From NCBI GenBank assembly GCA_016201505.1, contig JACQCQ010000002.1, positions 12,750-76,749 of the forward strand: a stretch of DNA of 64,000 bases, given 5' to 3'. Positions 14,405-35,385 of this stretch are shown one piece after another. Below the pieces are notes generated by a model. It searched no databases. It was not told the DNA's origin and was given only the letters and a program-made list of their open reading frames with translations. This DNA comes from Candidatus Sungiibacteriota bacterium. Lineage in GTDB: Bacteria; Patescibacteriota; Minisyncoccia; Sungbacterales; JACQCQ01. Both the position numbers and the translations under genes were made by a program. Positions within the stretch are counted from its first letter, which is position 1. Each line of letters opens with the position of its first letter.

Positions 14405-14965
14405 ATGGCTAAGACTATCCAACGAGTGGCCTTCGGCGGCGGATGCTTCTGGTGCACCGAAGCCGTCTTTCTTGAATTGAAGGGTGTCGCGAATGTCACA
14501 CCCGGCTATGCCGGAGGAGCTCTATCGGCTGACGGAAAGAATCCGACCTACGGGCAAGTCTCGTCCGGAAAAACCGGACACGCCGAGGTCATTTTAATTG
14601 AATATGATCCATCAATTATCTCGTTTCAAACATTACTCGACGTCTTTTTTATTTCGCATGATCCAACGACTCTCAATCGGCAGGGAAATGATGTGGGAAC
14701 ACAGTATCGGTCTGTTATTTTGTTTTCGACCGATGATCAAAAGAAAGAGGCCGAAGCCAGTATCGCGGATCTCGCCGGTGAGAAAAAATACTCTCGCGCG
14801 ATCGTAACCGAAGTGGTGCCGCTCGGCGCGTTTTATCCGGCGGAGGAGTATCACCGAGAGTACTACCAGCGCCATCCCACCGAAGGTTACTCTCAATACG
14901 TCATCGAGCCCAAGATGCAAAAATTAAAAAAGGAACGGCCCGATCTTTTAAAATCAAATGTCTAG
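14405..14965 (+). CDS. msrA: Peptide methionine sulfoxide reductase MsrA
   Basis: Active-site GGGCFWCTEAVF motif. 186 aa. Confidence 0.9.
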   Translation: MAKTIQRVAFGGGCFWCTEAVFLELKGVANVTPGYAGGALSADGKNPTYGQVSSGKTGHAEVILIEYDPSIISFQTLLDVFFISHDPTTLNRQGNDVGTQYRSVILFSTDDQKKEAEASIADLAGEKKYSRAIVTEVVPLGAFYPAEEYHREYYQRHPTEGYSQYVIEPKMQKLKKERPDLLKSNV

Positions 14966-15575
14966 GCGGGCGTTTTATTGGCTGTTAATCGTTCTCCTGA
15001 CTGCCGCGGGATATTGGTTTTTTACGCGGCGGCACTTTATGGCGGATCGTCCAACGCGCGGCGGGACCATTGTGGCGTTTGGCGACAGTTTAACGGAGGG
15101 CGTTGGCGCAACTAGCGGCCATGACTACGTTTCGGTTCTTGCGCGGCGGATTGGCATGCCGATTATCAATGCCGGGAGATCGGGAGACACCACCGCCACT
15201 GCTCTCGGTCGGCTTGAGTCCGATGTGCTGGATAAAAATCCCAAAATCGTCATTTTATTTCTGGGCGGGAACGACGCCATTCGGTCGCGTCCGGTGGCGG
15301 AAACGTTCGCCAATCTAAAAGACATGATAGAAATGATACATAGGCACGGCTCGGCGGTGATGCTCATTGGTATTCATGTCGGCCTTTCAGCCTCGACCTA
15401 CGACACAAATTTTGCCGATCTTGCCGAGCGCGAAAAAACCAGTTTTGTGCCCAATATTTTAGGCGGCATTTTAGGCCATGACAATTTGATGTCTGACGGC
15501 ATCCATCCCGATGACCAAGGCTACCGCATCGTAGCCGATCGTATCGAGCCGATCTTGATGGAAATGCTGAAATAA
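14958..15575 (+). CDS. SGNH/GDSL-family hydrolase (arylesterase/lysophospholipase-like) with N-terminal TM
   Basis: Blocks GDSLTEG, GGNDA and DGIHP (catalytic Ser, Gly, Asn, His). Confidence 0.8.
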   Translation: MSRRAFYWLLIVLLTAAGYWFFTRRHFMADRPTRGGTIVAFGDSLTEGVGATSGHDYVSVLARRIGMPIINAGRSGDTTATALGRLESDVLDKNPKIVILFLGGNDAIRSRPVAETFANLKDMIEMIHRHGSAVMLIGIHVGLSASTYDTNFADLAEREKTSFVPNILGGILGHDNLMSDGIHPDDQGYRIVADRIEPILMEMLK

Positions 15576-15646
15576 ATTTTAATACAGCTTGTAGTATTGT
15601 TCGAGTCTCACGTAGGATAGAATAAAAATCTAATACATTACGAGTC

Positions 15647-16150
15647 ATGCAAAAAGGAGTTATCAGCGTCATCGCACTGATCATTTTAATTGGTGGGGGC
15701 TATTGGTTGTTTGGCGGGGCATTGAAGACCGGATCCTCGAGTTCGGCGGGCGAGATTACTGGAGCTCGTGATATGAGCCAGCCGGGGAATAAAACCGCTG
15801 GCCAGACCCAAGCCGCCACAGAGTCCACGCCTCCGCCAACGACCGAAACACCAACGGGATCGGCCGCGGCGCGCCAGATTTCAGTGACTGTAAACGGCCA
15901 AAACTTTTCCTTTTCCCCTTCCGTGATTAACGCGAAAAAAGGCGATGTCATCACCGTCAATTTCGTAAATCAAGACGGCTTCCATGATTTGCGAATCGAT
16001 GGTTACAATGTCGGCACTAATCAAATTGCGTCAGGCGAGACCAATTCCTTCACATTCACCGCGGACAAAGCCGGAAGTTTTGAGTACTACTGCTCGGTTT
16101 CGAGTCACCGCGCCATGGGCATGAGGGGGACGCTTGTCGTGGCCGAATAA
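15647..16150 (+). CDS. Secreted cupredoxin-domain (plastocyanin/azurin-like) blue-copper protein with Thr/Pro-rich linker
   Basis: N-terminal TM or signal. C-terminal ...GFHDL...YYCSVSSHRAMGM supplies His, Cys, His and Met copper ligands. Confidence 0.7.
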   Translation: MQKGVISVIALIILIGGGYWLFGGALKTGSSSSAGEITGARDMSQPGNKTAGQTQAATESTPPPTTETPTGSAAARQISVTVNGQNFSFSPSVINAKKGDVITVNFVNQDGFHDLRIDGYNVGTNQIASGETNSFTFTADKAGSFEYYCSVSSHRAMGMRGTLVVAE

Positions 16151-16238
16151 ATTAGAGACACTTTGTGTAATCGCAGAATGTGCATCATCCCCCATTCTCT
16201 TATGAGGTAGTTCTTGGTGTGCTATATTACGAATATCT

Positions 16239-17681
16239 ATGCGGTTTCGCACCTCGCTTACGCTTTCAGTCCTCGTCACCCTGCTCGTCGTGGGCCTCGT
16301 CATCGCCTCCTCACGCGCTATTTCGCCGATTTTGATTTCGGCAGAGCGCCAAAATTTGATTTCACTTTTTCCGATTGTCCAAAACGTAATTCTTGAGACT
16401 AATTCATTCCCCAAAGAGCGCATGCAGAAAATCCGCGACATCACGGGGGTTGATGTAACACTGCTCGATGAATCAAATCACATTCAACAAACGACGCTTG
16501 ACTCGTTGCGTCTCGGGACGGTGCTCTATATTGCTTCAGGCGAAGATACGATTTTTGATGTTGTGGCGATCAACGGCGTTTCTTCATTTATCCTGACGGC
16601 GCCGCTTAAATTAAACGGCGTGCCGTTGCGGCTCGTGATTTCAAAAAAAGATGATTTACTTGGTCCCTTTCTTGATGAATTTTTAACCGCCTCGGTGTTT
16701 GTCGTGTTACTCGGTCTCGCCGGTTCGATCGCTGTCGGCGTGTATATCGCCAGCCGCGAACGTTCGGCCTCATTTGCGCTTGAGCGTTCCTATGCCGAGC
16801 GCATGGAAACGGAAGTCAGGCGCACCAGGTCTTCAACCGAGGCCGAGATTGGAAGACGCATCAAAGCCGGCGAGAATGAAAAACGAGCCTTTCGTTCGGC
16901 ACTCGGTGCTTCTGATGAGGGCATCTTTGTGATTGACGCACTCGGGAAAATTATTTTTTTCAATCCAAAAATGGAAATCCTCTCGGGTTACGAGGAAGAG
17001 GGGGTTTTGAATCACGCTTTGTCTGGCATTATTTGGCTCACCAGAAAAGGCAAAGTTGATCAATTAACCGGCCTGATTCCGCGCGTTTTGGCGACCGGCG
17101 TGCCGGAAGTCTTTCCCCGTGATACTTTGCTGAAACGAAAAGATGGCAACTACGTTCCGGTTTCGGTAAAAACGGTGCCCGTCCGGGATGATACGCGTTC
17201 CGGCATCACGCACATTGTGGTAACGGTTGCGGCACTTCCCACCGAGCCACGCGTTGTGCCCGAGGAGGGCGCGCGCGAGGAGATAACGTTGTCTTTGCCC
17301 AAGCCCTTGCTCATGCCGAGCATAGAGACGCGCGAGATGGTTGATTTACGAAAACAGCAGGCCGTGCCAGTTTACGCGGCGCCAGCCCCCGCGATGAGTC
17401 TGCTAGAATCAAAACCTGCGGTTCATCCGGTGTCTGAATACGAGGCTGGGGCCTTAGAGACCAAAACGGCGGGCGAGACAAAATTAGAAGACACTTCACT
17501 ACTGACCGATCTTGAAGAATTGGGCCAGATCGTAAAAGAAACCATCCTGCCCCGTTTAGTAAAAAAAGAACCTGAGGCTCCTCCTGCGGCGCCACCTAGA
17601 GGGGCGAGCCTCGCCGCTGGCGGGCCGTCAAGCGCCACGGGCCTCGCCGCCGGCGGGCCGCCGGCCAATCTGCCCGTCTGA
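16239..17681 (+). CDS. Membrane-anchored PAS-domain protein with Pro/Ala-rich C-terminal tail (no kinase domain detected)
   Basis: N-terminal TM. Central PAS-like block GIFVIDALGKIIFFNPKMEILSGYEEEGVL...RKDGNYVPVSV. The C-terminus is low complexity. Confidence 0.55.
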   Translation: MRFRTSLTLSVLVTLLVVGLVIASSRAISPILISAERQNLISLFPIVQNVILETNSFPKERMQKIRDITGVDVTLLDESNHIQQTTLDSLRLGTVLYIASGEDTIFDVVAINGVSSFILTAPLKLNGVPLRLVISKKDDLLGPFLDEFLTASVFVVLLGLAGSIAVGVYIASRERSASFALERSYAERMETEVRRTRSSTEAEIGRRIKAGENEKRAFRSALGASDEGIFVIDALGKIIFFNPKMEILSGYEEEGVLNHALSGIIWLTRKGKVDQLTGLIPRVLATGVPEVFPRDTLLKRKDGNYVPVSVKTVPVRDDTRSGITHIVVTVAALPTEPRVVPEEGAREEITLSLPKPLLMPSIETREMVDLRKQQAVPVYAAPAPAMSLLESKPAVHPVSEYEAGALETKTAGETKLEDTSLLTDLEELGQIVKETILPRLVKKEPEAPPAAPPRGASLAAGGPSSATGLAAGGPPANLPV

Positions 17682-17745
17682 ACCTATATTGTACTATAGG
17701 ATGATATAGGTAAGCTCCAGCTCGTGGACGGGGTTTTCTGGCCGC

Positions 17746-17774
17746 TTGAGTAAAATAAAATTCCTCGTTATACT
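17746..17774 (+). promoter_or_regulatory. Sigma70-like promoter (TTGAGT - 17 nt - TATACT) upstream of the peroxiredoxin gene
   Basis: Hexamers and 17-nt spacing seen directly, about 30 nt upstream of the ATG. Confidence 0.5.
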
Positions 17775-17806
17775 TTGAGCGCCTAATCTTAACTCTTTTA
17801 TTTTTT

Positions 17807-18328
17807 ATGATAAAAGTTGGCGCACCCGCTCCGGAGTTTACACTCCAGGGGGTCATGAACCATAAAACCAAAGCTTATTCACTCGAAAAGCAGCGCGGCA
17901 AGTGGACGGTGATTTTTTTCTATCCGCTGGATTTTACCTTTGTCTGCCCAACCGAGATTCATGGCTTTGATAACCATATTAAAGAATTTAAAGATTTGAA
18001 CGCTGATGTCTGGGGAATTTCAGTTGACTCGGTGCACTCGCATCGCGCCTGGATCGAATCTGAATTTAAGAAACTTTCTTTCCCGTTGCTTTCAGATTTT
18101 AACAAAGAAATTATTCGCGAATACGAAATTGATACCGAGGAGCCGGAGGGGACAGTGGCGCTTCGCGGGACATTTATAATCGATCCCGAAGGATTACTTC
18201 GATACGTTGTTGTATCCGATAACAATGTTGGCCGGTCGGTTGAAGAGACCATCCGCGTTTTGCAAGCTTTACAGACCGGAAAACTTTGCCCCGTCGAGTG
18301 GGCAGTCGGGGAGAAGACGCTGAATTAA
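17807..18328 (+). CDS. Peroxiredoxin (AhpC/TSA family, 2-Cys type)
   Basis: Peroxidatic Cys motif FTFVCPTEI. Probable resolving Cys in KLCPVEW. Confidence 0.9.
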   Translation: MIKVGAPAPEFTLQGVMNHKTKAYSLEKQRGKWTVIFFYPLDFTFVCPTEIHGFDNHIKEFKDLNADVWGISVDSVHSHRAWIESEFKKLSFPLLSDFNKEIIREYEIDTEEPEGTVALRGTFIIDPEGLLRYVVVSDNNVGRSVEETIRVLQALQTGKLCPVEWAVGEKTLN

Positions 18329-18335
18329 GAATCAT

Positions 18336-18375
18336 GAGCCCAAAACCGTCTACAGGCGGTTTTGGGCGGTTTGCC
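18336..18375 (+). terminator. Hairpin terminator (CCCAAAACCG tctacag CGGTTTTGGG)
   Basis: 10-bp stem after the prx stop. Confidence 0.45.
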
Positions 18376-18463
18376 ACTCCCCATAAAACGCATATACTAG
18401 TCTTACTTCAATGAAAAAGGTAAAAAAAGAAACGTTTACCCCACGCCATAATTAAATTTTAAG

Positions 18464-19837
18464 ATGTCGGACAATACTTTTAAGAAAAAAGATGTTAAGC
18501 GGGTAAATTTTTCCAGACCGAACGATGGCGTGGGGGTGTATCTCGACTACGCCGGCGCGACACCGATGGATCCAGAGGTGAAACACGCCATGGAGCCATA
18601 TTTCGAGGATAAGTTCGGCAATCCCGCCGCGCTCTATCGAGACGGACGCCTGGCGAAAGACGCGATTGATGAATCACGCAAAACGATTGCGCGGATTTTG
18701 AATTGCCGCGAATCGGAAATTATTTTTACCGCCGGATCGACGGAGGCCGATAACATTGCATTGTTCGGCGTGGCTGAAGCTGTGGCGGGGAATAGGGCAT
18801 GGGGCATAGGGAATGGAAACGGGCATCTGATTATTTCGGCCATCGAGCATCATGTGGTCTTAAATTCTGCCGAGGCTTTAAAACGGAAAGGCTTTGAAGT
18901 CTCGCTTGCTCCGGTTGATGCAGAGGGCATCGTAAACCTGGATGAATTAAAAAAATTAATTCGGTCGGATACATTTTTAGTTTCCGTCATGTACGCTAAT
19001 AATGAGATCGGCACCATCCAGCCGCTTTATGAAATCGGGAAAATAATAAAACAGGTCCGCGAGGCTCGAAAAGCATCGGGCAACAATCTGCCAATTTATT
19101 TTCACTCGGACGGGGCGCAGGCCGTGGGCGCTTGTGATTTGGACACGCAAAAACCCGGCCTTGATTTATTTGTGATTTCTGGATCCAAGATTTATGGGCC
19201 GAAAGCCATCGGCGCCCTTTATATACGAAGAGGCACGCCAGTCAGGCCGATGTTTTTCGGCGGCGGGCAGGAGAATAATTTGCGCTCCGGCACGGAAAAT
19301 GTTCCAGCGATCGTGGGACTGGCGAAAGCGCTCGAACTCGCCGAAGCCAAAAGGAATCCGCCGACTGGCGGAGAAAATACGCGGCTCATCAAATTACGCG
19401 ACTATTTCATCAAACGGCTTGTAACAGAAATCCCCAAAACAATTTTAAACGGGCACGCGACACGGCGCCTCCCCAATAACGTGAACGTCTCGATCTTGGA
19501 TATTGAAGGCGAGGCGGCAGTCTTATATTTAGATGCGCACAGCATCTCGATTTCCACCGGCTCGGCCTGCACCTCGCTGACACTTGATCCCTCGCACGTC
19601 ATTTTGGCGCTTGGCCGCCCCTATGAGCACGCGCATTCGTCGCTCCGGTTTTCGCTCGGCCGCAAGACGACGAAAGAAGACATTGATTATGTGATGGAAG
19701 TTTTGCCTCAAGTTATCGCGCGGCTCCGTCAGATTTCGCCGCTTAACATGAAGGTGGATCAAAAAGAAATTTCGCACCCCGAAGCCTTTGCGGGGCAGGG
19801 AGCGAGGGTGAAAGTGGGGGGGCAAAAATATAAATAA
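18464..19837 (+). CDS. Cysteine desulfurase (NifS/IscS family, class V aminotransferase)
   Basis: PLP-lysine region SGSKIYGPKAIGALY and active-site loop SSGSACTS. Followed by an IscU/NifU scaffold gene. Confidence 0.9.
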   Translation: MSDNTFKKKDVKRVNFSRPNDGVGVYLDYAGATPMDPEVKHAMEPYFEDKFGNPAALYRDGRLAKDAIDESRKTIARILNCRESEIIFTAGSTEADNIALFGVAEAVAGNRAWGIGNGNGHLIISAIEHHVVLNSAEALKRKGFEVSLAPVDAEGIVNLDELKKLIRSDTFLVSVMYANNEIGTIQPLYEIGKIIKQVREARKASGNNLPIYFHSDGAQAVGACDLDTQKPGLDLFVISGSKIYGPKAIGALYIRRGTPVRPMFFGGGQENNLRSGTENVPAIVGLAKALELAEAKRNPPTGGENTRLIKLRDYFIKRLVTEIPKTILNGHATRRLPNNVNVSILDIEGEAAVLYLDAHSISISTGSACTSLTLDPSHVILALGRPYEHAHSSLRFSLGRKTTKEDIDYVMEVLPQVIARLRQISPLNMKVDQKEISHPEAFAGQGARVKVGGQKYK

Positions 19838-19987
19838 GTTCGCTGCCGTTTCTGCAATACATGCCAAAATTCAATGTAAAGAATTTTGCCCTCACGCTCG
19901 TCATAACTCCGCGATGATTTCAGAAACGGCAGCTTCACAAGAGCTGGCTGTAGGTATTCAAAAGAAGTAAATAATAATTTTGTAAAA

Positions 19988-21781
19988 ATGCCTGAACCGA
20001 TCGACGTCATAAACCAATATACGGGTGAAAAATGGTATTACTCGGATCAGGTAAAGGATCACTTTTTTAATCCGCGGAATTTGCTGCTCGACGACCCAAA
20101 AGAAGGCGAGTATAACGCGATGGGGCTCGTCGGGAGCCCGGCCTGTGTTGATCCCGCCACTTTAATTCAGACTAATCCCGCGTCGAAGAGAATTGATGAG
20201 GTATCTAAAAAGGAAAAGGTTCTAGGCCATGACGGTTATTTTCATTCAGTAGAAAGAATTTTTAAGCCTCGCTATGCGAGTGAAGTGATAAAAATAAAAA
20301 ATCAGCTGGGAACATTATCGGCGAGTCCCGACCATTTAATATTTGCCATACAAATCCCTCGAACAAAATCAAAATTCTTTCATACCTATCGAAAAAAGAA
20401 ACTTCCGATTTCCTGGGTCCATGCGGGTGATTTAAAAAAAGGAGATATTGTTCTCTATCCAATTCCGCAAGAAGTGCGGGAAATGAAAGAAATTGTTCTG
20501 CCTGAATTTGTAAAAAAAGTCTGGGATTTTAAAAGTAAATCATTGCCGTCTCGCATCCCGATTCAAAAAGATCTTTTGGAGCTTTTTGGCTACTTTGTGG
20601 CAGAAGGACACACGAGAGATAGCGGAAAAGAGGCGGGATTTACGTTTAGTATTAACGAGAAGATATTTGCTGAGCGTGTTAGATTCTTGGCGCGGAAATA
20701 TTTTCATGTCGAGTCCGTCATTCGTGAGCGGAGAGAAAGTAATCGCATCGATGTCGCAATCTACAGCGTCCAGCTTTCAAGACTTTTCCGTGAGTGGTTT
20801 GGATCAGGCGCTGCAGAAAAGCGTGCACCAGGATGGCTGATGTTTCTTTCACCTGAACTGCAGGCAGGATTTATCCGCGGCATCTGGCGCGGCGACGGGT
20901 ATTTTAATGCAATCCGATCACAACCTCGAGCTGGTTTTGCGACGATTTCAAGAACTCTTATTCATCAAATGCGCTGGCTTCTTCTACGACAAAAAATTGC
21001 GCCGTCGTTCTATCGCGGACAAGCTTCCATCAAAAAAGGAGTTTCTCATAAAGCTTCATATCGGATTCATATTGGTGGTATGAATTCGCTCGAACGGCTT
21101 GCGGCAATTTTGGAAATTCCCTTTTCTCGAGATGTGAGTAAGCAACACGCCGAAGAAGTTTGGTTTGATGAAGAGTATATGTATCTTCCAATTCGGAATT
21201 GTACCATCGGAACTTTTAGCGGCAGACTCGCTAATTTTGAAGTGGCAGAATCTCATTCATATACAACTGATGCTTTTCTTGTTCATAACTGCGGCGATAT
21301 GATGCACATTTGGATGAAAATTAATCCGGAGTCGGAGCGGGTGACTGATTTAAAGTGGCGCACCTTCGGCTGCGGTTCGGCGATTGCCGCAACCTCGATG
21401 TTTTCGGTGATGGTAACGGAGAGCGGCGGGAGGACTTTGGAAGAGGCGCGCGGCATCAAGCCCCAACACATCATGGAGCGGCTCGGCGGACTGCCCAATC
21501 GAAAAATTCACTGCTCGGTCTTGGTAGATAAAGCCTTCCAGAAAGCGGCTAATGATTATTTTAGAAAAATCGGGAAGTACGAAAAGATTGTCGTTGAGGG
21601 CGCCAAAGTCATTGATGCGGGAACGCAGACGACCGATAAAGATATTGAGGAGGCGGTGCTGGAGGGCGCGGTTGATTTGGATGCGGTTCAGAAAAAGTTA
21701 AAAGTCGGCATCGGCAATCCAGAAATAATTCCCGAAGTCGAGCAACTCATCCGCTTCTATAAAGAGAAGTACTACGGCTAG
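19988..21781 (+). CDS. IscU/NifU-type Fe-S scaffold protein interrupted by an intein (extein about 215 aa)
   Basis: Exteins YSDQVKDHFFNPRN...GSPA | CGDMMHIWMKI...TFGCGSAIAATS...KIHCSVL match IscU blocks. A 382-aa insert lies immediately before the conserved CGD cysteine. Confidence 0.85.
   Translation: MPEPIDVINQYTGEKWYYSDQVKDHFFNPRNLLLDDPKEGEYNAMGLVGSPACVDPATLIQTNPASKRIDEVSKKEKVLGHDGYFHSVERIFKPRYASEVIKIKNQLGTLSASPDHLIFAIQIPRTKSKFFHTYRKKKLPISWVHAGDLKKGDIVLYPIPQEVREMKEIVLPEFVKKVWDFKSKSLPSRIPIQKDLLELFGYFVAEGHTRDSGKEAGFTFSINEKIFAERVRFLARKYFHVESVIRERRESNRIDVAIYSVQLSRLFREWFGSGAAEKRAPGWLMFLSPELQAGFIRGIWRGDGYFNAIRSQPRAGFATISRTLIHQMRWLLLRQKIAPSFYRGQASIKKGVSHKASYRIHIGGMNSLERLAAILEIPFSRDVSKQHAEEVWFDEEYMYLPIRNCTIGTFSGRLANFEVAESHSYTTDAFLVHNCGDMMHIWMKINPESERVTDLKWRTFGCGSAIAATSMFSVMVTESGGRTLEEARGIKPQHIMERLGGLPNRKIHCSVLVDKAFQKAANDYFRKIGKYEKIVVEGAKVIDAGTQTTDKDIEEAVLEGAVDLDAVQKKLKVGIGNPEIIPEVEQLIRFYKEKYYG
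20144..21289 (+). other. Intein with LAGLIDADG homing-endonuclease domain inside IscU
   Basis: Starts with Cys (CVDPATLIQ, block A) and ends ...AFLVHN followed by the extein Cys. Block B TxxH-like SPDHLIFA. Two LAGLIDADG-like motifs (LFGYFVAEGH and GFIRGIWRGDGYF). The insert is in frame and a multiple of 3 (1146 nt). Confidence 0.8.
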
Positions 21782-21926
21782 CAGCGAGGGAAAAATGAAA
21801 ATATCAATTTTCATTTTGGCCGAGCGAACTAGCCGATGAGCGGAGCGAGTGCAAGGAGCAGCGAGGGAAAAATTAAAATATCAATTTTCATTTTGGCCGA
21901 GCGAACTAGCCGATGAGCGGAGCGAA
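21780..21926 (+). repeat. Tandem direct repeat, 2 x about 69 bp (1 mismatch, 8-bp spacer), each unit with an 11-bp stem hairpin AAAATGAAAAT atca ATTTTCATTTT
   Basis: Seen directly downstream of the iscU stop. Confidence 0.7.
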
Positions 21927-21985
21927 TACAGCTCCCCTCCCCCGCGTTAAGAGGTTTTAGTGAATAAAATAACAAGACCCGGCGA

Positions 21986-22619
21986 TTACTTCTTCGCCAG
22001 GTCTTTGGCCTCTTTGGGGACGGCGCACTTCATGGTGCCGCGCTGCCAGCCTCGGAGGCCGGCCGCCAGCAGGCGTATCGTGAGCCAGCCGCATTCGGCC
22101 AGCAGGATCGGCAGGCCGGCCGCCAGGCAGAAGAACTTCTCTGTCTTTGTCATCGGCTCTTTGCGGTATTTCTCGATAAGCCGCAAGAGACGATGATTAA
22201 CGCCGACGTAGAGGCAGAACGACACGATCGCGATCGCGAGGCGCACCGCTTTTCACCTCCTTCGAGGCCGATGCCGCGTGGAGTCCCCCGTCGATGTAGC
22301 GAACTCCTTCCCAGAGCACGATGACGACTGGGGCGAGCCCGAAGAAACCGTACATCTGGTCTCGATAGCCGATGAGGATCGCGAGGATGTTGAGCGACCA
22401 AACGATGAGAGGCGAGAGGATTGTGATCAGCACAATCATCCCCAACTTGAAAGCCAGAGAGCCCATAGTTCCTCCATGTCGAAGTTCGCCACTTGATTGC
22501 GAAAGATCCGCGTTTATACCTACAATGTACAGGTATGGAGAGTCAAGCGCCAGATATAAAGCCCAAAAAAATTGGGAAGATCGTTGTCGATCGCAATTTG
22601 TGCATCGGCGCGGCCTCAT
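21986..22619 (-). CDS. Hypothetical membrane protein in a GC-rich islet. Two overlapping minus-strand ORFs (22197..22619 and 21986..22246) may be one frameshifted gene.
   Basis: Hydrophobic segments in both ORFs. Gene boundaries are uncertain. Confidence 0.3.
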
Positions 22620-22786
22620 GCGTGGCTGTCGCTCCCGGTGTTTTTGAGTTGGACGGCGAAAATAAGGCCGTGGTGCATAATCCGGAAGGTGCGGATTTTG
22701 AGACCATCATGCTGGCCGCCAAATCCTGCCCGACGATGGCGATTTATGTTTTCGATACGGAGGGGAATCAGATTTACCCCGTTTAG
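22535..22786 (+). CDS. Small single-cluster ferredoxin
   Basis: CIGAASC..C-type cluster cysteines (CIGAASCVAVAP ... KSCP). Confidence 0.7.
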   Translation: MESQAPDIKPKKIGKIVVDRNLCIGAASCVAVAPGVFELDGENKAVVHNPEGADFETIMLAAKSCPTMAIYVFDTEGNQIYPV

Positions 22787-22993
22787 AAAATTTAACTTGT
22801 GACAGTAATATTGTTGTACATGTTATTGGGATTCTATGCCTTGAGTTTTGTAAGAGCTACGTATAAATTTTCTAACGGGGTGTATCCGGAGTAAGGTAAA
22901 ATGCTAAATCCGAAGCACGAAGCACTAAACAAATTCTAATGACAAAAATCCAAAGCTCAAAACGTTTAGAATTTAAGGTTTTGAATTTAGATA

Positions 22994-23338
22994 TTGTTTC
23001 GGATTTCGCATGCCGAATTTATGAGAATAGCGTGTAAAGTCGATGATGCGGGATTAAATTCTCGCGGCTGGAAAGTATTTGATTGTTTCGGCGGGAAAAC
23101 CTGTCTTGTTATTAAAGAGGGCGAGGCATATCGGGGGTTTGTAAACACCTGTCCACATATGCAAGGCGAAGTGCGTCCGTGGGATAAGACAACGGGCGAG
23201 CGCGTGTTACAATGCAAGACGCACGGCGCCGAGTTTGATTACGCAACAGGCGCGCGCCTTTCTGGCCCGCCGCCGGAAGGCTCGAGTCTTCGCGCCTTAC
23301 AATTTTTTGTCGAGCAGGACGTCATTTATTATAAATAA
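22994..23338 (+). CDS. Rieske [2Fe-2S] domain protein
   Basis: Rieske boxes CPHMQGEV and CKTHGAEF, about 20 residues apart. Confidence 0.65.
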   Translation: MFRISHAEFMRIACKVDDAGLNSRGWKVFDCFGGKTCLVIKEGEAYRGFVNTCPHMQGEVRPWDKTTGERVLQCKTHGAEFDYATGARLSGPPPEGSSLRALQFFVEQDVIYYK

Positions 23339-23375
23339 TCTTAATTCTTTATTCTTAATTCATAATTCTACGCAC

Positions 23376-23969
23376 ATGGATCTAAAGCCGTTAAAATATA
23401 CTTCACTCGAAGGACTGTCCGAGAAGCAGTTAAAAGAACACCACGACGTGTTGTATGCCGGGTATGTTAAAAAGACGAATGAAATTCGTGAGGCGCTGGC
23501 CAACGTCGATCTTGCAAAATCGAATGCCACATTTTCAGATTTGCGTGAGCTGAAATTAGAAGAGACCTTCGCCCTAAACGGTGTCAAATTGCACGAGGCT
23601 TATTTTGACAATATGGCGGCGGGGAAAGTCTCCGGGGGTCTCGCAAAAAAATGGATCGAGGAGGATTTTGGTTCATTTGAAAAATGGGCCGAAGATTTTA
23701 AGGCGACCGGCATCGGCGCGCGCGGCTGGGTGGTGCTGGCCTTTGACCTCGATGAAGGAAAACTGCGAACATTTCTCTGCGATGCGCACAATCAGGGCGG
23801 CGTCTGGAATACTATTGCGCTGCTTATCATGGATGTTTACGAGCACGCGTATTTTATTGACTACGCCACCGGGAGAAAGAACTACATAGAAACTTTTATG
23901 AAATTAATTGATTGGGGAGAGGTCAATCGGAGACTTGGGCTTTACGGACTCGAAAAGTTTAGAAAGTAA
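23376..23969 (+). CDS. Fe/Mn superoxide dismutase
   Basis: N-terminal HHDVLYAGYV and C-terminal DVYEHAYFIDY metal-ligand motifs. ATG 23376 chosen (198 aa). Confidence 0.9.
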   Translation: MDLKPLKYTSLEGLSEKQLKEHHDVLYAGYVKKTNEIREALANVDLAKSNATFSDLRELKLEETFALNGVKLHEAYFDNMAAGKVSGGLAKKWIEEDFGSFEKWAEDFKATGIGARGWVVLAFDLDEGKLRTFLCDAHNQGGVWNTIALLIMDVYEHAYFIDYATGRKNYIETFMKLIDWGEVNRRLGLYGLEKFRK

Positions 23970-23995
23970 TCTGTTGCGGCGGATAAAAAAAGATC

Positions 23996-24023
23996 CCCGG
24001 GCCGCGTGTCTACGCGGCCCGGG
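23996..24023. terminator. Hairpin (12-bp stem CCCGGGCCGCGT / ACGCGGCCCGGG) between convergent genes, with an A-run on the + strand and a T-run on the - strand
   Basis: Seen directly. Probably terminates the minus-strand gene 24040..24588. Confidence 0.5.
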
Positions 24024-24039
24024 GGTGAGCCCCGGAGTG

Positions 24040-24588
24040 TCATCTGACTGTCTCGTAAAATAACAGATTGTGATCGATCCCGGCCTCGAAATCAACCAGT
24101 GGCGGCAAATCCTTGCCCTCGCTGGGCTTTCGGAAATAGAGCTCGAGCGCCAGCTCCCCGAAAATTCCCGCCTCGAGTAGTTCGCTGGCGACAAGGCGTC
24201 TCGCCCGCAGTTCCGTGCGGCAATCCTCGAACTCGACCGACTCAATCTCGCTCTCCATGAGGGGGATGAGACGCAAGGTGTAGCCGAGGACGAGGCCTGA
24301 TTTGTTTTTCACCTCACGCACCTCTGCGGCCAGCATGAGGTAGTCCGTCTTTGATTCGATCTGCAGTCGAATCCGTGCGGCCAGCAGGTTGCGAACGATG
24401 TCCTCCAGCCTGGTCTTTCCAACCGATGAGGCCGAGGCCAAGAGGTGATCAGCGTTGATCACCGGCCAATGAATGATCGGCCCGCCATCGACTAGGAGGT
24501 TACCGGAAACCGAGTCGCCATTTCTTGTAACGCGCATGCTTTCTCCTTTTGCTCCGGGGATGAAATAGGACGCCATAAACATTGACAC
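24040..24588 (-). CDS. Hypothetical protein (182 aa), GC-rich
   Basis: Long ORF with a terminator downstream on its own strand. No recognisable motif. Confidence 0.4.
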   Translation of the reverse strand: MSMFMASYFIPGAKGESMRVTRNGDSVSGNLLVDGGPIIHWPVINADHLLASASSVGKTRLEDIVRNLLAARIRLQIESKTDYLMLAAEVREVKNKSGLVLGYTLRLIPLMESEIESVEFEDCRTELRARRLVASELLEAGIFGELALELYFRKPSEGKDLPPLVDFEAGIDHNLLFYETVR

Positions 24589-24637
24589 TTTGCAAGCTTA
24601 TTGTCAAATGGAACGCAAAATGGCATAGTAAAAAATC

Positions 24638-24865
24638 ATGGACCAAGTACCGATCAAGAAACAGCGCCTCTACTACGCGGCACTGGCCGTCGCCATTTTA
24701 AATCCGATTCTTTCAGGACTGATTTTGGGTATCGCCATGCTGCGCGAGCCGAATTTAAAACATGAAGGCAGGATTGTGCTTATGTTTTCTGTTGTCTGGG
24801 GCACCCTGGTTTTACTGCTGGTGGGGAAATACAATAGCCAAATCGTTTCATTTTTCCAGAATTAG
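24638..24865 (+). CDS. Small 2-TM membrane protein, hypothetical
   Basis: 75-aa hydrophobic ORF divergent from the previous gene. Confidence 0.3.
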   Translation: MDQVPIKKQRLYYAALAVAILNPILSGLILGIAMLREPNLKHEGRIVLMFSVVWGTLVLLLVGKYNSQIVSFFQN

Positions 24866-24972
24866 ACGCGGTCCCGTTAGAAAATTAAGCTGTATCTCGC
24901 AGAAAATAAATGACGAAAATTTTAGAAGAAATCAGAAATTACATTAAAGTCACTGGTTAATTTTCTAACGGG

Positions 24973-25197
24973 ATGAAAGAAGCCATTGAACAAGCGCTGG
25001 ATTCAGTCCGTCCCATGCTCGCCCTCCATCGCGGCGGCGTGGATTTTGTTGCCTATAATGAAGAGACCAAAACCGTCCAGGTCAGGTTAAAGGGAACGTG
25101 TCACGGCTGTCCGCTGTCGAGCCTCACCTTAAAAGCTGGCATCGAGGAGATTTTAAAAGAGAAGGTTCCGGGGGTGCTCTATGTTGAGTCGGTGTAA
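24973..25197 (+). CDS. NifU C-terminal domain / Nfu-type Fe-S cluster carrier
   Basis: GTCHGCP CxxC motif in a 74-aa protein. Confidence 0.75.
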   Translation: MKEAIEQALDSVRPMLALHRGGVDFVAYNEETKTVQVRLKGTCHGCPLSSLTLKAGIEEILKEKVPGVLYVESV

Positions 25198-25245
25198 TAT
25201 CGCTTGGATTTTTTTGTAAGTAATAGGTGCTTTCAAGGTACCCGC

Positions 25246-26448
25246 ATGCCTATTGAGAAGATCAGCCGAACACAATTTTTGGCGTTGGTGGCTATCGTAG
25301 CCTTTAGCGCCGCCGCGGGCGGCGGGATTTTTGCGTTCAGCTATGTGTTAAAAAATGCCGGGACCTCTCATTCTATTATTGGTTCTATCCCGAGCTTTGC
25401 AAATGATGAAGCCGTGGTTCAGGCGGTGGCCGAGGCCTCACCGGCGGTGGTCTCAATCGTCGAGTCAAAAGATGTTCCCATCATTGAGCAATACGGCGTT
25501 TCTCCGTTTGGCAACGATCCATTTTTCCGGCAATTTTTCGGTGATTTGCAGATTCCGCAGTATCGCCAGAAGGGAACAACAAAGCAAACGGTCGCGAGCG
25601 GCACCGGGTTTATTGTTTCTCAAGACGGCATGATCGTAACCAACAAGCACGTGGTGCCTGATGCCAACGCCGATTACACGGTCTTCATGAATGACGGCAG
25701 TACATTGTCCGCCAAAGTTTTGGCGCGTGATCCAATCGAAGATTTGGCGATTCTGAAAATAAATAAATCCGGCCTCGCCACCTTAAAACTCGGCGACTCG
25801 TCAAGGCTTAAAATCGGCCAGACCGCGATCGCCATTGGCAACTCACTCGGCGAATTTAGCAATACCGTTTCGGTCGGCGTCATCTCGGGACTACGGCGGA
25901 ATGTGACCGCCTATGCTGGGGCTCTCGGGGGCGGCGAAGATTTATCGGAACTCATTCAAACTGACGCCGCGATTAATCCCGGCAATTCAGGCGGACCGCT
26001 GCTGAACATCGAAGGCGAAGTGATCGGCATTAACACCGCGATTGTTGAAGGCGCCGAGAGCATAGGCTTCTCTATTCCCGCGAGTAAAGCCCAACACGAT
26101 ATTGATTCAATCAAGAAATCGGGGAAAATTATTTATCCCTATATGGGAGTTCGCTATGTGTCGTTAAATCGAGATCTAGAGGCGCAAAGCAAACTGCCGA
26201 CTGCCAACGGCGCTTGGCTCTTTGCGGCGGATTCAAGTTCGGCCGTTCTTCCCAGCTCGCCGGCCGAGAAGGCCGGACTTAAAACTGGGGATATCATTAT
26301 CCAAGTCAACAGTGATGAGATTGACGCAAACCATAGTCTCGCCCAGTTGCTGGAAAAATATTCTGCCGGAGATGTGATCGCGCTTTCCTATCTAAGGGAT
26401 GGTGCTCGTAAGACTACGAACCTGACGCTGGTGGAGCGCCCGCAGTGA
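25246..26448 (+). CDS. HtrA/DegP-family serine protease with C-terminal PDZ domain
   Basis: Catalytic blocks TNKHVV, DLAILKI and GNSGGPLLN. The C-terminal region is PDZ-like. Confidence 0.9.
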   Translation: MPIEKISRTQFLALVAIVAFSAAAGGGIFAFSYVLKNAGTSHSIIGSIPSFANDEAVVQAVAEASPAVVSIVESKDVPIIEQYGVSPFGNDPFFRQFFGDLQIPQYRQKGTTKQTVASGTGFIVSQDGMIVTNKHVVPDANADYTVFMNDGSTLSAKVLARDPIEDLAILKINKSGLATLKLGDSSRLKIGQTAIAIGNSLGEFSNTVSVGVISGLRRNVTAYAGALGGGEDLSELIQTDAAINPGNSGGPLLNIEGEVIGINTAIVEGAESIGFSIPASKAQHDIDSIKKSGKIIYPYMGVRYVSLNRDLEAQSKLPTANGAWLFAADSSSAVLPSSPAEKAGLKTGDIIIQVNSDEIDANHSLAQLLEKYSAGDVIALSYLRDGARKTTNLTLVERPQ

Positions 26449-26760
26449 AACATTGTTCGATTATTCGGCATATAATATATCCAATCAAAACAGTCTCAAA
26501 CTCGAAATGGAAACCCGGGTTGATTCATTGGGGTTATCAGCACCGAAGGCTTAGGTAGCGGTTTTCTTTGATGGTTTGATGAAAGTCAGCCCGGTAGGCT
26601 TGGTTAAAACGCTTTAACTATGGGCGAAATCTGGATTGATTTATCCGATTTTTTAAGCTATAGTCAGACTAGACACTGCCAAACGGCATGCGTTGAGAGA
26701 CCAGAGTAAAAGATTTAAGTTTCTTTTAACCCTCGTTTTTCAATTGCCTGCACAAAACGA

Positions 26761-29442
26761 ATGCAAATGCCGCCGTTCAACAATTTCACCAATAAGGCGC
26801 AGGAAGTCTTAAAGAAATCGCACGATCTGGCGCTTGAGCGCTCGCATCGGGAGGTGGATACCCTGCACGTTTTGACCTCGCTCGTATTGCAAGAGGAGGG
26901 GATTGTTGAAGCTATATTGGAAAAACTGGATATCGATATTTCGCAGCTGGCCGACAAGCTGCTTGAGCTGCTTGACTCGATGCCGCGCGGCGCTTCGATG
27001 TCGGTCATCGGACAGGTGTATTTAACGCCGGATTTGGTGCGCGTCATGGAGCAGGCGCACCGCGAGGCCGGCCAATTAAAAGACGAATTTATTTCAACTG
27101 AACATTTAATGCTGGCCATCGCCGAAATCCCTTCTCGTTCGCGCGACATGTTGTTAAACGCCGGACTGACGAAAGACAATATTTTAAAATCTCTGCAAGA
27201 GTTGCGCGGCAACACGCGGGTTACCGACGCCGAGCCGGAAACAAAATACAACGTCATTGAAAAATACGCGCGCAATTTAACCCGGCTGGCCAAAGCCGAC
27301 AAGCTCGATCCCGTTATCGGCCGCGATGAAGAAATCCGCCGCGTCATGCAGGTGCTTTCACGCCGCACCAAAAATAATCCGGTGCTGATCGGAGAGGCAG
27401 GCGTGGGCAAGACCGCGATCGCCGAAGGACTGGCGCAAAAAATTGTTGCCGGCGAAGTACCGGAGTCACTTAAAGATCGTGAACTGATTTCGCTGGATCT
27501 CGGTTCGCTGGTTGCCGGAACAAAATATCGCGGTGAATTTGAAGACCGGATGAAAGCGATTTTAAAAGAGCTTGAGCGGGCTGACGGAAAATATATTATC
27601 TTTATTGACGAATTACATACGATTGTAGGCGCCGGTGCGGCCGAAGGCGCGATTGACGCCTCGAATATGTTAAAGCCGCCGTTAGCCCGCGGCGAACTGC
27701 ACGCGATTGGCGCGACAACTCTGAAAGAGTACCAAAAATATATCGAACGTGATCCGGCGCTGGCGCGGAGATTTCAGCCGGTTTATGTCGATGAGCCGAC
27801 GATCGAAGAAACAGTGGCTATTTTAAAAGGCTTGAAGCACCGCTATGAAGTCCATCACGGCATTAAGATCACGGACGGGGCCTTGGTCGCGGCCGCCAAT
27901 CTTTCATCGCGCTATATTACCGACCGCTTTCTGCCCGATAAAGCCGTTGACTTGATTGACGAGGCGGCCTCGAGTTTGCGGCTTGAGATTGATTCAACGC
28001 CCAGAAAATTAGAGGAACTGCGGCATGAAATCATGAAGCATGAAATTGAGCGTGAGGGACTCAAAACCGCCAAAGACAAAATTTCGAAAGACCGGCAAAA
28101 AAAGATTGCCAAGGATCTGGAGATGTTAAAAGAAGAATACGCTAAGATCGAAGAGACCTGGAAGAGCGAGAAAGGTTCGATTTCCGAAATCCGCGAATTT
28201 AAAAAGACGCTTGATCAATTGCGCCAAGAATCAGCCTCGGCCGAGCGCGAAGGCGACTTTGGCAAAGTGGCCGAAATTCGCTACGGGCGCATTCCTGAAA
28301 CGGAAAAGAAGCTGCGGTTGGCCGAAACAAAATTGCGCAGACTTCAAACCGCTCGTCAGGTGGTTAAGGAAGAAGTGACTGAAGAAGAGGTTGGGGACGT
28401 CGTCGCGCGCTGGACGGGCATTCCCGTAACCAAGATTTTGGAAGCCGAAGCCGAGAAACTGATTCATATGGAAGAGGCCTTAAAACAGAGAGTCATCGGC
28501 CAGGCTGAAGCGGTGGAAAAAATTGCCAACGCGGTACGAAGATCTCGGGCGGGCATTTCTGATGAAGATCGGCCGATGGGTTCGTTTATCTTTTTGGGCC
28601 CGACGGGTGTCGGCAAGACGGAACTCGCCAAAACCCTCGCCCAATTTCTCTTCAACGATGAGAAGGCTCTCATTCGATTCGACATGTCCGAGTTCATGGA
28701 AAAACACACGGCTTCCAAGTTCTTCGGTTCGCCGCCGGGGTATGTCGGCTATGAAGAGGGCGGCCAGTTGACCGAGATGGTAAAACACCGGCCGTATTCC
28801 GTCGTTCTTTTCGATGAAATTGAAAAAGCCCATCACGATGTGTTTAATGTGCTTCTGCAGATTTTGGATAATGGGCGCCTGACGGATGCCAAGGGCCGCA
28901 CAGTGAACTTCAAAAATACGATTATCATCATGACTTCGAATGTCGGCAGCGAATTCGTGCAAGACTACTCACGACTTGGATTCTTGGGCGGGAGTGAAGA
29001 TACAAAATTAAAAGAAGAAGAGGATGTTCAATCCAAGATTAGGAAGACGCTGGAACGAAATTTTCGGCCGGAATTCTTAAATCGGGTGGATGAGATTATC
29101 TACTTCAAGGCTTTAACGCCCGAGGTTATCCGCGAAATTGTCGACATTCAGTTGTCGCGCGTAGCGCAACGCATGTCGAAAAAAGAAGTGGCACTTGAAT
29201 TCTCGAGTACCCTCCGCGATTATGTGGCGGAAAACGGCTATGACTCAAGGTACGGCGCACGGCCGTTAAAGCGATTCATTGAATCAAAGATTTTAAATCC
29301 CTTGGCTTCTGAAGTTGTCTCATCCCGCATAAATCCGGGGGACTCGATCTTTGTTGATATCCGGGATGGAGAAGTCACCCTCGAGAAATCCGGCATACGG
29401 CTGGCCACGGCGAAAAAACGGAATCTGGCAAAAATTAAGTAA
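26761..29442 (+). CDS. clpB: ClpB-type AAA+ disaggregase chaperone
   Basis: Two AAA+ modules (GEAGVGKT and GPTGVGKT Walker A) and a long coiled-coil middle domain. 893 aa. Confidence 0.9.
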
Positions 29443-31659: not shown

Positions 31660-34600
31660 ATGAGTAAAACATTCAAAGCGAGACTGAAAGTGGCCGCCAT
31701 CGCGGTGGCGACAACCGTCTCGATCTCTGGAGCTCTCATCGTTGCCCCGCAATTAGCCAAAGCAGATGCAATCAGCGATCTCATGGCACAAATTGCGGCG
31801 CTTCAGTCACAGATCGCAGCCCTTCAGGGCGGCGGCTCATCTGGCACCGGCACTGGTCTCAATCTGACGACCAATCTTGGCCCTGGCTCGAAAGGAGCAG
31901 CCGTTACTGCATTACAGACTGCATTGAAGACTGATGCGTCAGTCTATCCGGAAGGAATCGTTTCAGGTTTCTATGGGTCACTGACAACGAAAGCGGTACA
32001 GCGCTTCCAAGCGAAGTACGCCATTGTTAGCTCTGGAACACCATCCGCCACTGGATACGGTGCGGTTGGTCCAAAGACACGTGCGAAATTAAATTCAGTA
32101 TATGGAGGTACAGGTGGTACTACGGGTACTGGAACTACGGGTACAACCGCAGTAGGTTCGGGCCTCACGGTTTCATCCGTTACCCAGCCATCAGCTACAC
32201 TCGCCCCCCAAGGTGCCTCACGACTGCCATTTGTTAAGGTTCAATTGAGCGCCTCAAGTGACGGCGATGTGACCGTAAAGAGTCTCACCGTAGCCCGACA
32301 AGGACTTGGCGATGACGCGGTATTCACTGATCTTGCGCTCCTAGATGATAACGGCATGCAGATTGGTTTGACCAAGACCTTCAATGCCAACCACACCTTA
32401 AGTTTTAACTCTCCGTTTACGGTGAAAGCCGGAACGACGAGGACGCTGACGGTAGGAGGCAACATGGCCGCCAGCCTTGCAGCCTACGCGGGTGAAGTCA
32501 TCAATCTGGCGGTTACCGCCGTTGATGCCGGCACTTCCGCAGTTTCCGGATCATTGCCAGTAGCCGGAAACGGCATGACGATCAACGCCAGCCTCACTAT
32601 TGGTGCGGCGACTGTTCAGATCGGCACGACTGATCCGCAAGCTTCTTCGACCGCCAAAAACGTTGGTGACTCGAACTTCATCTTTTCCGCAGTCCGCATG
32701 ACTGCCGGATCGGCTGAAGATCTGACCGTCAAATCAATTCGTTGGGAACAAGTTGGTTCAGTCGGCAGCGCAGACATTGACAACGTAACGGTTGTCGTTG
32801 GCGGAACAAGTTATCCGACGACAAACGACGGCAAATTCTACTGGGCCAGCTTTGGCAGCAGCGGCATTATGGTTCCGAAAGGCAACTCGCTTGAAATTGC
32901 CATTAAGGGTGATTTCGTAAACGGCTCTGGCCGCACGGCGCAGTTCAACATTCGGAAGGCCTACGACATTGTCATGACCGGCAACCTCTTCGGCTACAAC
33001 GTTACGCCGACAGGATCCGGCGGTCACTTCTCGACAGCTGAACCGTTCTTCGGCGGCTATCTGGCCACCGTAAATAACGGTACGTTGCTCGTCCAGAAGG
33101 ATAACACTGTTACTGCAACAAACATTCCGTTGAACACTTCAAACGTTCCGCTGGGATCGTTCCTCTTCACCGCTCGCGGTGAGGCGATTCAGATCACCAG
33201 CCTGCCGATTACTTTCACGGGGTCAACCTCGCCGAATCTGACGGGTGTGGCCATCTACGACAAGAATGGCAACGTCGTTGCGGGTCCAAAGGATCTTGCG
33301 GTAACCGGCGGCCCGACCACGATGACCTTCACTGATACGATTACCGTCCCGACGGGTGATAATGTCTACACCCTCAAGGGTAAACTGGGAACACAGTTCA
33401 ACAACGGTGATACGATTGGTATCAGTATGACGCCGTCTGGCTTCACTGCTCGTGGAACTGTAACGGGTAATACCATTACCCCGACGCCATCGTCGGCAGT
33501 TACGGGTAACACCCAAACCGTCCGCTCCGCCGCGCTCTCCTCTTCTATCGCTTCTACGCCGGTTGTGCAGAATGTGGTGAGAGGTGTCAACGGCTTCAAG
33601 TTCGCGACGATTCAGTATGACGCTTCTAACTCGGGTGAGGACCTGCGCATTACCTCACAGGCTTTGACTGACACGCTGACGAACAGCGCTGTGGCCGGAG
33701 ACCTTACCTCCTGCTTCCTCTACGACGGAACGACAATCTTGAACGATGGTTCTAACGTAGTCAACCCATCGGCGGCCGCCAATACCTTCACCTTCACGAA
33801 CGGCTTAGTCGTTACGAAAGGCACGGTCAAGAACGTGGACCTCAAGTGTAATATCACCTCGAGCGCGGTCTCAAACGGCACGCACTCCTGGGGATTCACT
33901 GCGGCGCAGACAGCCGCTGTTACTGGGTTAACCACCGGTAACACGGTTACCCCCCTACAGTCACTCCAACTTGGACAAGGCATGACCGTCAAGGTTGGTG
34001 GTTCATTCACCATCACTCTTGATACCTCAAGCCCGACTGAACGCTATGGTATTGCCAATTCAACCGGCAATGTCTTGTCAGTCTTCAAGCTCCATGCCGT
34101 AAATGAAGACTTGAGGCTGGATAAGATTCAGCTGTCATTCTCATCCTCGACCGCTTCTACAACCGACATTGTTCAGTTCACCCTCTGGGATGGCGCGACA
34201 CAGGTCGGATCAGGAGTATTCGCCGGATCGAACGTAACAGCCACCACGACCTTGAGCTCAAGCGTCATTATCCCCAAGGATGGTGATAAGCTTCTAACGG
34301 TAAAGGCTGATCTTACGCAGGTTGGCACTTCACAGCCAGGAACGACTGGACACACCATTGCTATTAATATCAATGGTTCCGCCACGACTTCCACGGTGGC
34401 GATTGGCCAATCATCAGGCTCATCCTTCAACTCAGGCACGAGCGCTGACGTGAACGGGAATGGTGTCAGACTGGTGAAATCCTATCCAACACTGGCACTC
34501 CTGCCGCTTCCGACGAACACCTTGTCCAATGGCCAGCAGGCCCTCTACCGCTTCTCGGTAACGGCTCCTGCCGCGGGTGACGTGGGACTCTACAAGTTCA

Positions 34601-35151: not shown

Positions 35152-35196
35152 TCGAGAGACTGCACCTAAAGAGTTACTTGTGATAACTCGCGACTC

Positions 35197-35236
35197 AAGC
35201 CCCCCGACGTACGTCGGGGGGCTTGGTCGTTTTCGG
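35197..35236 (+). terminator. Rho-independent terminator (AAGCCCCCCGACG tacg TCGGGGGGCTT + GGTCGTTTTC)
   Basis: Seen directly after the giant gene. Confidence 0.55.
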
Positions 35237-35385
35237 CACTCAAACCCCTCTCGATGTGACGTCGAGAAGGATTTTTGTTCATGTGGATAAAAGGGTTATG
35301 TAACCTTGGCGAGTCTTAGCATGTAAGCATATAATAGGAGTGCAGATTTATTACTCATAAGCGCTCGTTTGGCGTAAAAACAAAA

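Follow-up and report, generated by a model that had tools for sequence, protein, structure and literature searches.

The locus described here raises the question of what a 382-amino acid (aa) insert is doing inside the active-site loop of a predicted iron-sulfur (Fe-S) cluster scaffold protein, and whether that insert is or was mobile. It lies in a 64,000-nucleotide stretch of DNA from a Candidatus Sungiibacteriota bacterium (assembly GCA_016201505.1, contig JACQCQ010000002.1, positions 12,750 to 76,749), and this whole stretch is referred to below as the window. A reading of the letters alone, here called the original prediction, had proposed that an IscU/NifU-type scaffold gene is interrupted by an in-frame intein of 382 aa with a LAGLIDADG homing endonuclease. 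Translation of positions 19988..21781 (+ strand) bore out the open reading frame (ORF), the residues at both junctions, the size of the insert and its in-frame length. On the evidence set out below, we think it very probable that the insert is a class-1 intein of canonical type that carries a LAGLIDADG homing endonuclease within it and lies in frame between Ala52 and the first active-site Cys of an IscU/NifU-type Fe-S scaffold.

The ORF starts with ATG and runs for 1,794 bp and 597 aa with zero internal stops, and the ORFs on the opposite strand beneath it are all 71 aa or shorter. The junctions in the translation (marked here and below by a slash) read ...NAMGLVGSPA/CVDPATLIQ... and ...AFLVHN/CGDMMHIWMKI.... 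Removal of the insert in silico leaves a product of 215 aa and 24.2 kDa, with GLVGSPACGDMMHIWMK as the predicted ligated junction peptide; a spliced product of about 23 kDa had been anticipated, and it stands as a prediction with a trivial difference in mass. The insert alone amounts to 44.1 kDa, and the predicted precursor to ~68 kDa.

The identity of the host protein was evaluated by profile and structure comparisons. Pfam NifU_N matched the precursor as two separated stretches (E 4.8e-32), the best stretch covering residues 433-528, and the NifU_N score was 111 bits against a cut-off of 22. The NCBIfam models IscU, NifU_clost and NifU_proper gave E-values of 1e-30 to 1e-34, all under their curated equivalog cut-offs, and therefore we describe the host as a member of the IscU-like family and not as an assigned equivalog. 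When compared with the solved IscU structures 4eb5_C, 7c8m_A and 9wfy_D, the spliced extein aligned gap-free over the splice junction, and 2z7e_A shows the same aligned range; at the junction, vgspaCGDmm of the query is matched to vgnpvCGDlm of A. fulgidus and cgnpaCGDam of the 9wfy_D IscU. These alignments to intein-less IscU agree with the site originally proposed, directly before a conserved cluster-ligand Cys, and put the insertion point after Ala52, just ahead of the Cys in the P-A-C-G-D motif. This residue, Cys435, which we take to be the equivalent of Cys37 of E. coli IscU, is both the first conserved active-site Cys and the splicing +1 nucleophile. In an alignment of 108 intein-bearing IscU homologues, from which all conservation counts given here are taken (some columns cover fewer sequences, namely 104 or 107), the IscU active-site residues C435-G-D437, C462 (TFGC462GSAI) and H508-C509 (KIH508C509S) are invariant. 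A gene for the presumed sulfur donor partner ends 150 bp upstream of the IscU gene, and its match to FeS_nifS scored 444 bits, below the curated cut-off of 530.75 (Table 1).

The C-terminal ~68 aa of the host protein (aa 530-597, window 21575-21778) form an extension with a weak match to the BFD-like [2Fe-2S] family PF04324 (E 0.029). It resembles the NifU middle domain, yet it is without cysteines. The extension was found in 69 of the 108 intein-bearing homologues, among which a single column contains Cys, in 18 sequences.

The homologues were collected by searching 5.8 billion proteins with the precursor, which gave, besides the identical protein, over 100 homologues of full length, each carrying HN/CGD at the C-terminal junction. 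Intein identity across the 108-sequence alignment is only 37-74%, while the catalytic positions are fixed. Intein blocks A, B, F and G, the features by which the original prediction was to be checked, are all present and conserved in the window insert (Table 1), and Cys435-Gly-Asp, comprising the +1 residue and its loop, is kept in 108/108 homologues. Judged from these alignments, the architecture is far beyond chance, because more than 100 full-length homologues are built alike and C1, H-N and C-G-D are kept in 107-108 of the 108. Matches of the isolated insert to NCBIfam were confined to the intein parts of the Tes, PolII large subunit, ribonucleotide reductase, V-ATPase A (VMA), DnaB, IF-2 and RecA models, and a phmmer comparison of the insert with PDB sequences found the TliVMA intein (3.2e-7) and also PI-PkoII.

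The endonuclease part of the insert was examined by Pfam and by structure prediction. Pfam LAGLIDADG_3 matched the precursor twice (E 4.8e-15), and these two matches, with the acidic residues of the motifs, confirm the two LAGLIDADG-like motifs that had been noticed in the sequence. The precursor was modelled with AlphaFold2 from the 108-sequence alignment, and the model had a mean predicted local distance difference test (pLDDT) score of 89.5, with the endonuclease domain mostly >90. In a Foldseek comparison of the model with the PDB, ranks 1-16 were all intein chains (E 7.6e-22 to 3e-11), the best being TliVMA 7qsu (E 7.6e-22, template modelling score 0.74 on the target), with further intein matches to PI-SceI, PhoVMA, PI-PkoII and PI-PfuI; the modelled fold of the insert is that of solved endonuclease-bearing inteins. 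The extein part matched the IscU structures of A. fulgidus (4eb5_C) and Aquifex (2z7e) with a root-mean-square deviation of 1.5-1.7 Å, and Foldseek also matched the free-standing LAGLIDADG enzymes I-Tsp061I, I-DmoI and I-SceI (E 1.9e-6 to 2.6e-5). The two acidic-ended motifs and the doubled alpha-beta-beta-alpha-beta-beta-alpha fold of the model are those of a single-chain, two-motif LAGLIDADG homing endonuclease. Taken together, the insert has the Cys1, block B, block F, block G with residue +1, HINT fold and in-frame insertion at a conserved host site by which a class-1 intein is recognized.

Table 1. Positions in the window of the parts of the interrupted IscU gene and of neighbouring genes.
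Feature	Position	Strand	Precursor residues	Remarks
N-extein of IscU	19988..20143	+	1-52	C-terminal ...GLVGSPA; aligns to IscU residues N-terminal to the first Cys ligand
Intein, 382 aa	20144..21289	+	53-434	HINT splicing domain with inserted double-motif LAGLIDADG endonuclease domain
Block A (CVDPATLIQTNPA)	20144..20182	+		Cys53 is intein Cys1, the first nucleophile; Cys in 107/107
Block B (GTLSASPDHLIFA)	20309..20347	+		S113-P-D-H116; His in 108/108; Thr in 103 and Ser in 5 of 108
LAGLIDADG motif 1 (LLELFGYFVAEGHT)	20573..20614	+	196-209	Acidic residue E206 (LLELFGYFVAE206G); E in 98 and D in 4 of 104
LAGLIDADG motif 2 (GFIRGIWRGDGYF)	20867..20905	+	294-306	Acidic residue D303 (FIRGIWRGD303G); D in 101/104
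Block F (GRLANFEVAESHSYTT)	21221..21268	+		N416-F-E418...H423; N in 107/108, E in 104/108, H in 99/108
Block G and residue +1 (DAFLVHN/C)	21269..21292	+		His433-Asn434, then Cys435; H, N and C each in 108/108
C-extein of IscU and stop codon	21290..21781	+	435-597	N-terminal CGD
NifS/IscS-type cysteine desulfurase gene	18464..19837	+		Sulfur donor partner; NCBIfam TIGR03402 FeS_nifS, E 3.5e-133
MsrA	14405-14965
Cupredoxin-like protein	15647-16150
PAS protein	16239-17681
Peroxiredoxin	17807-18328
4Fe-4S ferredoxin	22493-22786
Rieske protein	22994-23338
Fe/Mn superoxide dismutase (SOD)	23235-23969
HtrA-like protease	25204-26448
ClpB	26761-29442

The mobility of the element was evaluated by comparison with uninterrupted alleles. 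A search with the spliced extein found 119 intein-free orthologues of 71-88% identity, several of them labelled Candidatus Sungbacteria. The closest, locus L001, has an uninterrupted site GSPA/CGD (...GGCTCGCCCGCG/TGCGGAGAC..., also written ...GGGATTGTGGGCTCGCCCGCG/TGCGGAGACGTCATGAGGATT...) within a gene neighbourhood similar to that of the window, consisting of peroxiredoxin, NifS, IscU, ferredoxin, Rieske protein, SOD and ClpB. In a 191-tip neighbour-joining (NJ) tree of the exteins, which includes 72 intein-bearing tips, intein presence requires at least 34 state changes, a count inflated by noise in so short a protein, and 24 intein-bearing proteins have a nearest extein neighbour without an intein; the interleaving is still plain. 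The orthologues therefore reveal a presence/absence polymorphism and not a fixed structural domain, in line with the original prediction.

At the same IscU site, mini-inteins of 143-164 aa were found in P0079, P0081, P0082 and P0198. Three of them, of 144-164 aa, keep the HINT halves, have lost the endonuclease domain and are clear deletion derivatives of the family to which the window intein belongs. The 143-aa mini-intein of P0198 is unrelated-looking, with a canonical block F (VYDMTV) containing Asp, and because it looks like a different intein, it implies a putative second, independent occupation of the IscU site. The window intein has a GC content at third codon positions (GC3) of 0.348; the exteins have 0.615 and 0.638, and the genes nearby 0.50-0.58. 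The intein also evolves faster than its host, the nearest relatives having 58-68% intein identity versus 80-87% extein identity. The intein-free orthologues, the empty site of L001, the patchiness with its mini-inteins, and the foreign GC3 support the interpretation that the element is, or was, mobile.

The distribution of the intein was evaluated by scanning a single genome for each GTDB species, in which 227 loci encode a relative; of the 80 best, at least 66 turned out to be IscU genes with an intein at this very site. According to the record labels, the carriers comprise members of the candidate phyla radiation (CPR)/Patescibacteria (Nealsonbacteria, Paceibacterota, Gribaldobacteria, Parcubacteria and others), DPANN archaea (Woese-, Nano-, Pace-, Micr-, Iain- and Undin-archaeota and Diapherotrites), other bacteria (Omnitrophota, WOR-1 and Elusimicrobia) and other archaea (Methanomassiliicoccus, Methanomethylicota, Bathyarchaeia and Thermoplasmatota). 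Eight loci (L007, L008, L020, L026, L037, L039, L048 and L078) are labelled 'uncultured Gammaproteobacteria' or 'uncultured Methanosarcinales' on third-party metagenome-assembled genomes, and these labels look unreliable, judged by the CPR- or DPANN-type IscU sequences. The reach of the allele over several phyla and both prokaryotic domains, like its patchy occurrence and foreign GC3, gives indirect support for homing.

An HMMER search with the intein alone against 1.84 billion cluster representatives found 5,136 proteins at E <= 1e-3, 126 of them at E <= 1e-30. Next in closeness to the IscU inteins were, among others, inteins hosted by 2-oxoacid:ferredoxin oxidoreductase beta subunits (P0253 and P0257, 35-38% identity), by a pyridine-nucleotide disulfide oxidoreductase, by UDP-glucose dehydrogenase, by a radical SAM protein and by a glycosyltransferase. 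The oxidoreductase-beta intein was found at WCPG/CGDF in 12 genome loci (L070-L076 and L078-L082, the intein lying at ~3001-4107 in most), and the DNA of its site reads ...TGGTGTCCGGGG/TGCGGAGACTTT...; this position presumably precedes a Cys of a [4Fe-4S]-binding CxxC motif. The local targets in the two hosts are alike, G(S/N)P(A/V)/CGD(M/V/I)M in IscU and WCPG/CGDF in the oxidoreductase, and the DNA of both fits CCN GNN/TGY GGN GAY. Compared with the IscU intein, the oxidoreductase-beta inteins are 34-38% identical and share Cys1, TxxH, the block F Asn, HN/C and the target P-x/C-G-D, and they differ in residing in another host enzyme. An NJ tree placed the two groups as sisters, with bootstrap values of 99% for the oxidoreductase-beta inteins, 67% for the IscU inteins and 21% for both together. 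This suggests that an ectopic jump between the IscU and oxidoreductase-beta sites may have occurred, which we offer as a lead rather than a finding because of the 21% bootstrap value of the sister group.

Several observations weigh against the interpretation of the insert as a canonical, mobile class-1 intein. There was no convincing Shine-Dalgarno sequence or clear ribosome-binding site upstream of the IscU ATG. The window copy has SxxH in block B versus TxxH in the family, the Ser being shared by 5 of the 108 sequences, and Asn416 in block F, where many class-1 inteins have Asp; the expected Asp at this position is presumed from the spacing in the Mtu RecA intein. The block F Asn is a trait of the subfamily, present also in 14/14 oxidoreductase-beta inteins and in 6/8 other related inteins examined. 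Pfam Intein_splicing scored 14.5 bits on the window copy, below the threshold of 35.8, which is passed by many of the homologues. Splicing and DNA cleavage are, for every member, predicted by homology. The NJ gain/loss count is subject to the inflation mentioned above, and, in comparison with the window copy, intein identity is correlated with extein identity (Spearman 0.84, n=105), and therefore much of the inheritance may be vertical.

The correlation also bears on an alternative in which the intein still splices and is no longer mobile, its endonuclease being inactive or its targets gone, and is kept only because an imprecise deletion beside the active-site Cys would destroy IscU. The alternative is credible, and we nevertheless consider it unlikely. 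The correlation would fit long vertical co-inheritance, the same-site mini-inteins show that endonuclease decay takes place in the family, and the nearest sampled intein is just 68% identical. Against this, the acidic residues of both LAGLIDADG motifs are kept here and in ~97% of homologues, the endonuclease domain is modelled at high pLDDT, the close intein-free alleles are potential targets, and the GC3 of 0.35 versus 0.62-0.64 argues that the intein has not been ameliorated to this genome.

Under the preferred interpretation, a splicing class-1 intein with a homing endonuclease, the 597-aa precursor would be translated as a single chain, in which cluster assembly would be impossible as long as a 44 kDa foreign protein splits the active-site loop. 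Cys53 (intein Cys1) would undergo an N-S acyl shift, Cys435 (+1) would attack the thioester in a transesterification, and cyclization of Asn434, assisted by His433, would free the intein. An S-N shift would then yield the 215-aa, 24.2-kDa IscU with the loop ...GSPACGDMM... intact, which would partner the adjacent NifS. The freed 44-kDa intein would be expected to cut intein-free IscU alleles at ...GGN AGY CCN GCN/TGY GGN GAY..., and repair of the cut allele would copy the intein in. With the insert dividing its active-site loop, the unspliced precursor would very probably fail as a scaffold. It is reasonable to infer that Fe-S biogenesis through the window IscU relies on splicing, and another scaffold, such as one of the SUF type, could lie elsewhere in the genome.

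Known inteins were compared with the IscU intein in terms of host, site and structure. The VMA inteins (TliVMA 7qsu/7qss, PhoVMA 7qst, and PI-SceI 1vde/1ef0) are the best PDB structure and sequence matches and likewise combine HINT with a double-motif LAGLIDADG endonuclease, whereas they are only 13-19% identical in sequence, reside in the V-type ATPase subunit A and differ at block F, where the IscU intein has Asn versus Asp. PI-PkoII (2cw7) and PI-PfuI (1dq3) share the two-domain architecture (Foldseek E 6.7e-14 and 1.1e-12) but are larger, at 454-537 aa, with extra DNA-binding domains, and their hosts are DNA polymerase and ribonucleotide reductase. The M. tuberculosis SufB (Pps1) intein, the nearest precedent in terms of function, is alike in lying within a core Fe-S assembly component, so that the machinery matures only once splicing has taken place, and in being class-1 with Cys nucleophiles. 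It is unlike the IscU intein in its SUF-system host SufB and in its insertion site and phylum, and the +1 nucleophile of the IscU intein, unlike that of SufB, is the conserved IscU active-site Cys. We saw no detectable special sequence relationship between the two inteins. The SufB intein is reportedly redox-sensitive (Topilina et al. 2015, listed among the references of PMC4760082).

This precedent is part of the case for conditional protein splicing, in which splicing would be blocked when Cys1 and Cys+1 are oxidized or bind metal, so that scaffold maturation would be tuned to redox or iron status. Both nucleophiles are Cys, Cys+1 is the conserved IscU active-site Cys, and the gene lies amid oxidative-stress and Fe-S genes encoding MsrA, peroxiredoxin, NifS, ferredoxin, Rieske protein, Fe/Mn-SOD, HtrA and ClpB. 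However, no configuration is commoner among inteins than Cys1/Cys+1, close relatives do without an intein, and the intein-free allele has the same gene neighbourhood; therefore, this context belongs to IscU and not to the intein. We regard conditional splicing as improbable. The broader proposal, that the IscU intein is a redox- or metal-gated maturation switch retained in the reduced-genome symbionts of the CPR and DPANN, in a lineage that possibly jumped between the unrelated Fe-S proteins IscU and oxidoreductase-beta via the shared coding sequence for P-x/C-G-D ahead of a conserved Cys, is in our view a long shot.

The idea that the insert is a permanent non-splicing domain, or that the gene is a dead pseudogene or an assembly chimera, for which the sub-threshold Pfam Intein_splicing score could be cited, is scarcely tenable, given that the frame is intact over 1,794 bp with all splicing residues conserved, that the exteins are 80-88% identical to intein-free orthologues and the insert would split the IscU loop, and that over 100 independent assemblies, drawn from several data sources, have the same architecture.

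Two other identities were considered and rejected. A class-3 intein has no N-terminal nucleophile and has an internal WCT triplet, whereas Cys1 is present and invariant here. A bacterial intein-like (BIL) domain has no +1 nucleophile and resides in variable host proteins, whereas the intein studied here has an invariant Cys+1 and interrupts an active-site loop that is highly conserved.

The public record of the window protein (NCBI MBI3627175.1, UniRef100_A0A9D6QV94) bears no title other than 'iron-sulfur cluster assembly scaffold protein', and the named homologues are titled in the same way. The IscU-intein sequences are already public, and precomputed Pfam matches flag LAGLIDADG and intein domains on them. 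To our knowledge, the InBase host list does not include an IscU intein. No description of an IscU/NifU intein was found in the searched literature on inteins, CPR/Patescibacteria and DPANN, including the text of the Novikova 2015 survey. As far as was found, this is a well-supported and apparently undescribed intein allele, of which the site and the distribution are of interest and the mechanism is unsurprising.

The remainder of the window was searched for other homing elements, since the original prediction had regarded the intein as a second class of such element there. This was not verified: Rfam at gathering thresholds found three tRNAs only in the whole window and no group I or II intron, and a second intein was not found when phmmer and a profile of 89 related inteins were run against all six-frame ORFs of the window. 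Pfam found no other homing endonuclease in 58 window ORFs, which are essentially all those of at least 150 aa. A promoter and terminator scan around the IscU gene gave hits that were no more numerous than in shuffled sequence.

The NifS-IscU pair lies inside an oxidative-stress and Fe-S gene cluster at 14405-29442, and much of the gene set and order is shared with L001. The Rieske and SOD ORFs overlap by ~100 bp when called from the first possible start codon; as the SOD Pfam match begins only at residue 52, the SOD gene probably starts further downstream than the TTG at 23235. A run of ORFs at 31660-37944, one of them of 1,163 aa, has PG_binding_1 (peptidoglycan-binding) as its sole Pfam match, and these large proteins, for which no other annotation was obtained, are possibly surface proteins. 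On the - strand, a 617-aa ORF at 45414-47270 joins a UDP-glucose/GDP-mannose dehydrogenase to a group-1 glycosyltransferase domain at the C terminus. For the dehydrogenase N domain, the profile is matched only from position 75 onward, as would be found in an unusual fusion or a protein with a truncated N terminus, and the ORF sits in a long glycosylation and methyltransferase gene cluster at about 40-63 kb.

With this intein, the central ISC/NIF-type scaffold IscU joins the list of intein hosts. The carriers, found widely in the CPR, DPANN and several other uncultivated phyla, often have few options for Fe-S assembly, and scaffold activity in them should be obligatorily coupled to splicing. 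Analyses of IscU based on length or domains would be misled in the carrier phyla unless the intein is annotated. The hypothesis of redox- or metal-conditional splicing is directly testable in this small, easily expressed protein, and the endonuclease and the natural mini-inteins are candidate tools.

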